Positions 6,815-7,023 of a stretch of DNA of 7,023 nucleotides are shown here, one piece after another; position 1 is the stretch's first letter, and each line of letters opens with the position of its first letter. The notes under the pieces were generated by a model. The model did no database searches, was not told the origin of the DNA, and saw only the letters and a program-made list of their open reading frames with translations. Position numbers and translations under genes: made by a program. This DNA comes from Escherichia coli (GTDB taxonomy: Bacteria; Pseudomonadota; Gammaproteobacteria; Enterobacterales; Enterobacteriaceae), in the NCBI RefSeq assembly GCF_003334785.1, contig NZ_QOWV01000037.1; one strand, written 5' to 3'.

Positions 6815-7023
6815 CCTGTCTGGTATTATTGTAAATATTTTCAGATATATATTACCTGGATGATGGTTAAGATTAATTTATTTAATTTTGGGGAGAAAAC
6901 TCATGAAACTGTTAAACATTCTTTTAGCTGTTGTTTTAACTGTAAGGTAACCGGCTCATTTAAACCGTCTGGTCTGTTTCCTCCGGCTCTACAAAAATAA
7001 TGTCCATCATTTTTAATGGACAC

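Follow-up and report, generated by a model that had tools for sequence, protein, structure and literature searches.

A position-fixed, covarying stem-loop directly upstream of tnpA at the left end of IS66-family insertion sequences

Insertion sequences of the IS66 family are abundant on the virulence and resistance plasmids, prophages and genomic islands of Enterobacterales, and both their regulation and the roles of the accessory proteins TnpA and TnpB are largely unknown. The hallmark of the family, as given by ISfinder, is a pair of imperfect terminal repeats of about 20-30 bp beginning GTAA; GTAA-type imperfect ends of this length are reportedly also part of the definition drawn up by Han and colleagues in 2001. 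In IS679, ISEc8 and ISCro1, such ends are found together with an 8-bp target duplication and with the gene order tnpA-tnpB-tnpC, with overlapping stop and start codons. Outside the family, work on IS10 and IS50 by Davis and colleagues in 1985 and by Schulz and Reznikoff in 1991 is said to have set the precedent for mRNA structures that sequester initiation signals. Structures of this kind, sequestering translation initiation signals in IS10 and IS50, are also mentioned in a preprint (bioRxiv 10.1101/2025.01.24.634351). The element described here does not differ from the IS66 family at the element level, and the mechanism that we propose for it, occlusion of initiation at an IS left end, is likewise of a known kind, although IS10 and IS50 belong to unrelated IS families and have no sequence similarity to it. 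A full-text literature search, with Han et al. 2001 and Gourbeyre et al. 2010 outside its coverage, found no description of a leader stem-loop in IS66. A leader stem-loop that is fixed in position and covaries offers the family a concrete, testable regulatory element.

The sequence analysed is a stretch of 7,023 nucleotides from Escherichia coli (the window). An earlier note on it had drawn attention to a short inverted repeat at its very end and had not recognized a mobile element. The last 77 bases of the window are the left end of an IS66-family insertion sequence of ~2.7 kb (tnpA-tnpB-tnpC), that is, mobile element rather than host locus, and the insertion lies downstream of a cluster of dynamin, RdcB and patatin genes. 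The features around the junction are:

6904-6946, + strand: small unannotated ORF, MKLLNILLAVVLTV..., interrupted by the IS insertion
6947-7023, + strand: first 77 bp of the IS66-family left end, cut by the window edge, with the insertion point after 6946
6947-6972, + strand: terminal inverted repeat IRL, GTAACCGGCTCATTTAAACCGTCTGG, an imperfect match to the right end of the full copy

In a scripted comparison, window 6947-7023 was 100% identical to positions 4724-4800 of locus L001 (NZ_AP024114), which carries a complete element, spanning 4724-7422, at a site other than that of the window. The earlier note was correct that the downstream context is missing from the window, and we recovered it from other copies of the same sequence. 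The reverse complement of the L001 right end, GTAAGCGACTCGTCAGAACCGTATTG, agrees with IRL at about 18 of 26 positions, and the L001 copy is flanked by an 8-bp direct repeat (GATTAGCC, at 4716-4723 and 7423-7430), a duplication that is read from this copy only, the right end of the window insertion being outside the window. PGAP annotates L001 with tnpA at 4777-5454, tnpB at 5454-5801 and, at 5821-7392, a transposase named 'IS66-like element ISCro1 family transposase'; the L001 TnpA scores 295.8 bits against NCBIfam model NF038385, for which the cut-off is 150. The full copy has every feature by which membership of the IS66 family is judged: ends of the GTAA type, a duplicated target of 8 bp, and tnpA, tnpB and tnpC as consecutive genes.

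The junction can also be located from the host side. A megablast search of window 6400-7023 against complete E. coli genomes matched 8,609 places in 3,413 of 5,426 genomes; the best single-copy matches end at about 6946-6953, and the tail beyond is multicopy. Among the matches listed from these complete genomes, none contained the exact window insertion in one piece: the best ones cover 89% and end at the junction, and in the sole 92% match the IS is about 176 bp further downstream. The uninterrupted allele in L002 (NZ_CP086259) reads ...AACTGTAAG/TGCAACC (that is, ...aactgtaag/tgcaacc), and in the window the IS sequence GTAACCGGCTCATTTAAACC... comes directly after the G at 6946. L002 has the patatin-like gene, its terminator and then the small ORF, which is intact there (MKLLNILLAVVLTVSATVAQTESAL followed by a stop, the last residues being ...SATVAQTESAL; 4485-4562, 25 codons). 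The ORF hit by the insertion looks like a signal peptide. Further upstream, the dynamin-family, RdcB-family and patatin-like phospholipase genes (window 2406-6771) overlap by 4 nt at 4799-4802 and at 5701-5704, overlaps that resemble those in a translationally coupled operon. A clear terminator lies 3' of the patatin-like gene at 6791-6809, and a terminator-like hairpin on the opposite strand at 6791-6773.

The inverted repeat occupies IS positions 55-76. The window ends with ...aaaataATGTCCATCATTTTTAATGGACAC (a longer stretch of the same end is ...CTACAAAAATAATGTCCATCATTTTTAATGGACAC), in which TGTCCAT (7001-7007), the spacer CATTTTTA (7008-7015) and ATGGACA (7016-7022) make up a perfect inverted repeat of 7 bp. 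The repeat of GTCCAT and ATGGAC around an 8-nt spacer that the earlier note had reported can be read directly from the sequence. It is perfect, as had been claimed, and in the window it is 7 bp rather than 6 bp long; the 6-bp core arms are at 7002-7007 and 7016-7021, so that the coordinates given for them (7001-7020 instead of 7002-7021) were one base off. Full copies of the element extend the repeat past the window edge to ATAATGTCCAT-N8-ATGGACACTAT, where the arms ATA-A-TGTCCAT and ATGGACA-C-TAT form 10 of 11 pairs, with three extra pairs beyond a single A.C mismatch (7000/7023). A continuing repeat and a gene start were both among the things that the earlier note proposed to look for downstream, and full copies have both: the three further pairs and, just 3' of the repeat, the start of tnpA. 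The parts of the stem-loop are:

6997-7007, + strand: 5' arm, ATAATGTCCAT, with its perfect part at 7001-7007
7008-7015, + strand: loop, CATTTTTA, A+T-rich and variable among relatives in both length (4 to 16 nt) and sequence
7016-7023, + strand: 3' arm, ATGGACAC, continuing with TAT outside the window

Taken alone, within the window, the 7-bp repeat is indistinguishable from chance. First-order Markov simulations give 3.2 +/- 2.2 perfect 7-bp inverted repeats with loops of 3-10 nt, and the window contains 6; for six-bp repeats the figures are 14.1 +/- 4.5 in the simulations and 24 in the window. The 22-mer spanning the repeat is predicted to fold with -7.4 kcal/mol (z = -3.4). The significance of the repeat comes from its conservation and covariation in related elements and not from the window alone.

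Our sample of left ends comprised 75 GTDB loci (from a TnpA alignment), 80 IMG/VR loci (from TnpB), plasmid variants and one annotated ISEc8. It is a sample of Enterobacterales, and a tblastn search of plasmids, which gave at least 5,000 records, was also enteric; the non-enteric loci L076 and L080 were rejected as IS66 elements, being without tnpB and tnpC. Distinct IS66-family left ends with the stem-loop at the same place number more than 25 and come from about 20 enterobacterial genera, and every subgroup sampled has it except one (Mixta/Cedecea). In 25 distinct left ends the first base of the left core GTCC is IS position 56 or 57, and the right arm is just upstream of the tnpA start throughout. 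Loops range from 4 nt (L077:2796) to 16 nt (L065), and the core-to-core spacing from 12 to 16 nt. The arms of representative elements read as follows:

Pantoea: ATAGTGTCCAT-N9-ATGGACACTAT, a perfect 11-bp stem
Hafnia (L024): GCGTCCAT-N10-ATGGACGC
L065: GATAGAGTCC-N16-GGACTCTATC
Morganella group: GATAGTGTCCA-N-TGGACACTATC
L114, a relative of the Morganella group: GATAGAGTCCA...TGGACTCTATC
Group C: ACTTAGACGTCC...GGACATCTAAGT
L077:2796: GATAGCGTCCACCA-TATT-TGGTGGACGCTATC, a perfect 14-bp stem
L024:2505 and L072:3204: TAGTGCCC...GGGCACTA
ISEc8: GGTGTCCAC-N10-GTGGGAACC

The ISEc8 example, annotated in Stx2 phage 1717, carries its variant of the stem-loop where the window element does. In group D, what seem to be direct repeats (GTGGACAC...GTGGACAC) fold into a hairpin that occupies the usual position, immediately 5' of the ATG, and consists of an outer stem of 8 bp, an internal loop of tandem G.A and an inner stem of 5 bp; a relative of this group has a perfect 14-bp stem. 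The predicted folds exceed shuffles in stability, with z between -2.0 and -3.5 in seven of eight groups and -1.3 in the eighth. Conservation, an associated gene and a repeat partner, whose lack the earlier note would have held against the repeat, are thus all found.

Covariation was scored in 21 distinct sequences, with the arms set by two anchors and not by pairing. Of the cells in this alignment, 84.5% pair, as opposed to 26-41% when the partner is slid by 1-3 columns. Double changes occur in 6 of 12 pairs, and 34 cells are double-changed compared with 13.6 +/- 3.2 in shuffles (0/500), in covarying sequences that make up about 7-8 lineages and so represent few independent events. RNAalifold, given an independent MAFFT alignment of 24 native sequences, returns the same helix, with 5 of 8 pairs compensatory. 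Even the core takes part: its second pair changes from T-A to C-G in L024:2505 and L072:3204, and both intermediates exist (T.G in L075; C.A in L062/63/67). As far as these alignments go, the arm sequences differ between groups yet stay complementary, and pairing is maintained by compensatory changes. A covariance model (R1) finds one match per IS66 left end, plus its palindromic echo on the opposite strand, in 377 kb that include the sequences used to build it, and finds no match at right ends or in coding regions of the same 377 kb. It matches the window at 6991-7023, 3'-truncated, with 31.8 bits and E about 1e-4. Rfam covariance models run over L001 4600-5000 gave three chance-level matches elsewhere and none over the hairpin.

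The stem-loop coincides with the region where tnpA begins, and the features there are:

6970-6998, + strand: candidate weak sigma-70 promoter, TGGTCT (6970-6975), a 17-nt spacer and AAAAAT (6993-6998)
7000-7002, + strand: ATG at which PGAP starts tnpA (225-aa form), equivalent to L001 4777
7016-7018, + strand: ATG of a possible 5-codon leader ORF, ATG GAC ACT ATC GTA TGA
7018-7020, + strand: Shine-Dalgarno-like GGA, 9 nt upstream of the conserved tnpA start, with no other such element

Only the first 8 annotated tnpA codons are inside the window. The 225-aa protein is recorded as WP_001339397.1 ('IS66-like element accessory protein TnpA'), in a cluster of 2,424 member sequences, and the 10 residues that follow from the annotated ATG, MSIIFNGHYR, show no difference between TnpA homologues whose overall identity is only about 60%. 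This identity, and the fact that 7-bp repeats are common by chance, would fit a repeat with no function of its own, which either is a chance palindrome or is kept just for encoding MSIIFNGHYR. We give almost no credence to that explanation, which is largely refuted by the covariation, since groups with unrelated arms stay complementary. The reading frame from the annotated start is, moreover, broken by a +1 insertion in L003 (Shigella), by a TAA that the 9-nt loop creates in the Pantoea copies, by a +1 shift in Xenorhabdus and by an in-frame TAG in L016, although the DNA is conserved, and the NF038385 profile starts at residue 13. On these grounds we rejected a coding constraint on MSIIFNGHYR; judging from the broken frames, the constraint at the repeat is on the nucleic acid and not on the peptide. 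Broken frames in relatives whose DNA is conserved, and a family profile that begins only at residue 13, indicate that PGAP probably starts the 225-aa TnpA, an annotation that has propagated widely, 10 codons too early. Most close TnpA homologues are called at 214 aa, and the conserved start is an ATG or GTG 30 nt downstream of the annotated one, which would be at 7030, outside the window.

With the start placed there, the distance from GGAC to the start codon is 6-11 nt, in most cases 8-9, in those subgroups that allow the start to be located, and the 3' arm lies over the Shine-Dalgarno-like GGA in most subgroups, as it does in the window element. In partition-function folds, the unpaired probability of the GGA is 0.00 when the left arm is in the RNA and about 0.55 when it is not (RNA from IS 59-62). 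The candidate promoter has its predicted transcript start near 7005, which would be inside the left arm. Hexamers weakly resembling -35 and -10 elements are present at IS 24-29 and 47-52 in 7 of 14 scanned left ends, from several subgroups, and the proposed promoter matches 7-10 of 12 consensus positions; stricter consensus scans find no promoter at the left end. The stop codon of the putative leader ORF overlaps the tnpA ATG as ATGA in the window element and as GTGA in the Pantoea copies. The corresponding (A/G)TG of Xenorhabdus, ISEc8 and the Mixta group shares the tnpA frame, which places an in-frame start codon in the 3' arm of these elements. In the window element, tnpA translation could be coupled through the leader ORF. 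In L001 4743-4821 (IS 20-98), folding also predicts an outer helix between GTCTGGTCTGTTTC (IS 21-34) and GAAACACCGGAC (the first tnpA codons), which in the window-type element encloses both the hairpin and the start codon.

We consider it about an even bet (probability roughly 0.5) that the stem-loop is an mRNA leader hairpin that occludes the initiation of tnpA translation. We infer that it acts in RNA because it lies directly 5' of the start, has the GGA or the start codon in its 3' arm, is free in its loop length and has no copy at the right end. In an RNA that contains both arms, the 3' arm would pair with the 5' arm and so lock up the GGA, in several relatives also the start codon itself, and block the initiation of TnpA; the three genes being translationally coupled, TnpB and TnpC would be limited as well. 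The element's own weak promoter would fire from about IS 59, inside the 5' arm, so that only read-through from neighbouring host genes would be silenced. Such silencing of read-through RNA would amount to protection from outside activation in the style of IS10 and IS50, with which our model would share a native start within or after the 5' arm and the folding of external transcripts only. It differs from them in that the first gene here encodes an accessory helix-turn-helix protein and not the transposase. Several points count against an mRNA hairpin. The candidate promoter is poor and escapes the stricter scans, the covarying lineages are few, and the Mixta/Cedecea subgroup does without the hairpin. 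As a Shine-Dalgarno element the GGA is weak, and ISEc8-type elements have it 15 nt from the ATG, unless their start is a GTG. The plus-strand mismatches carry no RNA-specific signature: in a hand tally of non-Watson-Crick stem pairs, A.C was about as frequent as G.U, so this comparison, tried as a test for RNA, did not discriminate. Finally, a symmetric protein-binding site would be expected to show complementary changes just as much as a stem would.

This last point leads to a double-stranded DNA operator, in which the arms would be half-sites for a dimeric protein, most plausibly TnpA, that autoregulates its operon by sitting over the transcript start or the ribosome-binding region, much as IS2 InsA and IS911 OrfA do at the promoters of their left ends. 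TnpA carries HTH_23 and HTH_Tnp_1 domains, the latter shared with IS2 InsA, IS1 InsA and IS911 OrfA, and it has a weak, sub-threshold match to the 'IS2 repressor TnpA' model (NF006928). The palindrome sits at the candidate promoter or immediately 3' of it, the GTCC/GGAC core is nearly invariant (20 of 21 sequences), the sense strand shows no bias towards G.U, and symmetric half-sites would covary like a stem. Where other groups have the hairpin, Mixta/Cedecea elements moreover carry ATGGACAC twice, as exact direct copies, and GTGGACA. We nevertheless regard an operator as a tentative and on balance doubtful explanation. The spacing between the putative half-sites varies with the loop and between the cores, groups with related TnpA have arms that differ at as many as 7 positions, a C-G pair replaces the core pair in one group, group D is without the left core and yet keeps both outer and inner stems, and there is no copy of the motif at the right end. 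The IS2, IS1 and IS911 repressors also differ in that they bind the terminal inverted repeat itself, whereas the palindrome here is separate, 55 nt inside the element and variable in spacing. Because its loop varies from 4 to 16 nt, the structure is better suited to a hairpin than to a rigid dimer site. Of the two options that the earlier note had offered, the small hairpin is accordingly favoured by the compensatory changes, the range of loop lengths and the fixed position, and the protein-binding site is the weaker one.

A palindrome can also be read from the other strand. A minus-strand hairpin followed by a U-run would form either an outward terminator, which could stop transcription leaving the element via its left end, or an antisense RNA against the tnpA initiation region. 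The latter recalls IS10 RNA-OUT/RNA-IN, which likewise places a palindromic stem-loop over the initiation region of the first gene; in the window element, the minus-strand hairpin has a U-run after it. A consensus scan does flag 7023 to 7000 as terminator-like, with 10 pairs and then TATTTTTGTA, and reading this strand turns into G.U both the A.C mismatch of the window (7000/7023) and the C.A mismatches conserved in group C. The stem, however, has only 3 G-C pairs, groups B, C and D lack the A-run that gives the U-tract, a scan of that strand within tnpA showed nothing promoter-like, and the mismatches of L004, L010, L074 and L075 are G.U on the plus strand only. The comparison with IS10 also breaks down, in that no outward promoter was detected and the U-run is not conserved in other subgroups. 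A minus-strand element therefore seems quite unlikely to us, and the palindrome, flagged by the scan as it was, falls short of a minus-strand Rho-independent terminator with its 3 G-C pairs and unconserved run. A plus-strand Rho-independent terminator was rejected: no T-run follows 7022, and the sequence goes on CTATCGTATG. A Fur box (GATAATGATAATCATTATC) was a further candidate and was rejected as well; its best match is 13 of 19, which 37 of 2000 shuffles reach, and the flanking A/T runs that make the match are missing in groups B, C and D.

The constant distance of the stem-loop from the IS tip (55-56 nt), and mismatches without strand bias, would also be compatible with a structural signal in DNA, a cruciform or single-strand hairpin near the left end that is used in transposition. 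The motif is, however, absent from the right end, and its position follows the tnpA start codon as closely as it follows the IS end. The element makes 8-bp target duplications and encodes the transposase TnpC, which we take to be a DDE enzyme, and we know of no hairpin requirement for DDE-type elements with 8-bp target duplications. We think a signal of this kind very improbable. A subterminal binding site for the transposase was likewise rejected: there is no repeat of the motif at the L001 right end and no covariance-model match at any right end.

The subgroup without the hairpin bears on a further possibility. The direct copies of ATGGACAC in Mixta/Cedecea suggest that this 8-mer may have a sequence-specific role of its own. 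The stem-loop might be a dedicated cis-element, in RNA or in DNA, that is recognized by TnpA or TnpB and sets the transposition frequency, with the repeated ATGGACAC of Mixta-type elements as a rearranged form of this recognition motif; we consider this unlikely. If true, a cis-element recognized by protein would give a first handle on what the accessory proteins do.

The elements without the hairpin come from Mixta, Cedecea, Erwinia and some Pantoea (L021, L025-L039, L036, L042, L044, L047 and L112). They have ATGGACAC at IS 50-57 and 69-76, together with GTGGACA, around a TTCGCGAA palindrome (region IS 50-90), and their second ATG is the apparent tnpA start. Mixta mediterraneensis carries at least 17 copies of this hairpin-less IS66 element.

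Another candidate for an element seemingly without the hairpin, a 99-bp miniature element at 3001-3099 of L006 (NZ_CP078136 plasmid), turned out to be two truncated left ends placed head to head, one IS66 end of the window type and one of the ISEc8 type, with no target duplication; this unit occurs once in 5,426 E. coli genomes and is uninformative about the hairpin. The hairpin loop itself can be the site of insertions. An 18-nt palindrome, AGATCTGGGGCGCAGATC, is inserted in the hairpin loop of a Serratia element, and its reverse complement in that of a Citrobacter braakii copy; the related CTGCGCCCCAGAT is found where two IS66 ends meet on an E. coli plasmid. The sites are at about 2962-2979 in L018, about 2806-2823 in L070 and 3056-3068 in L006.
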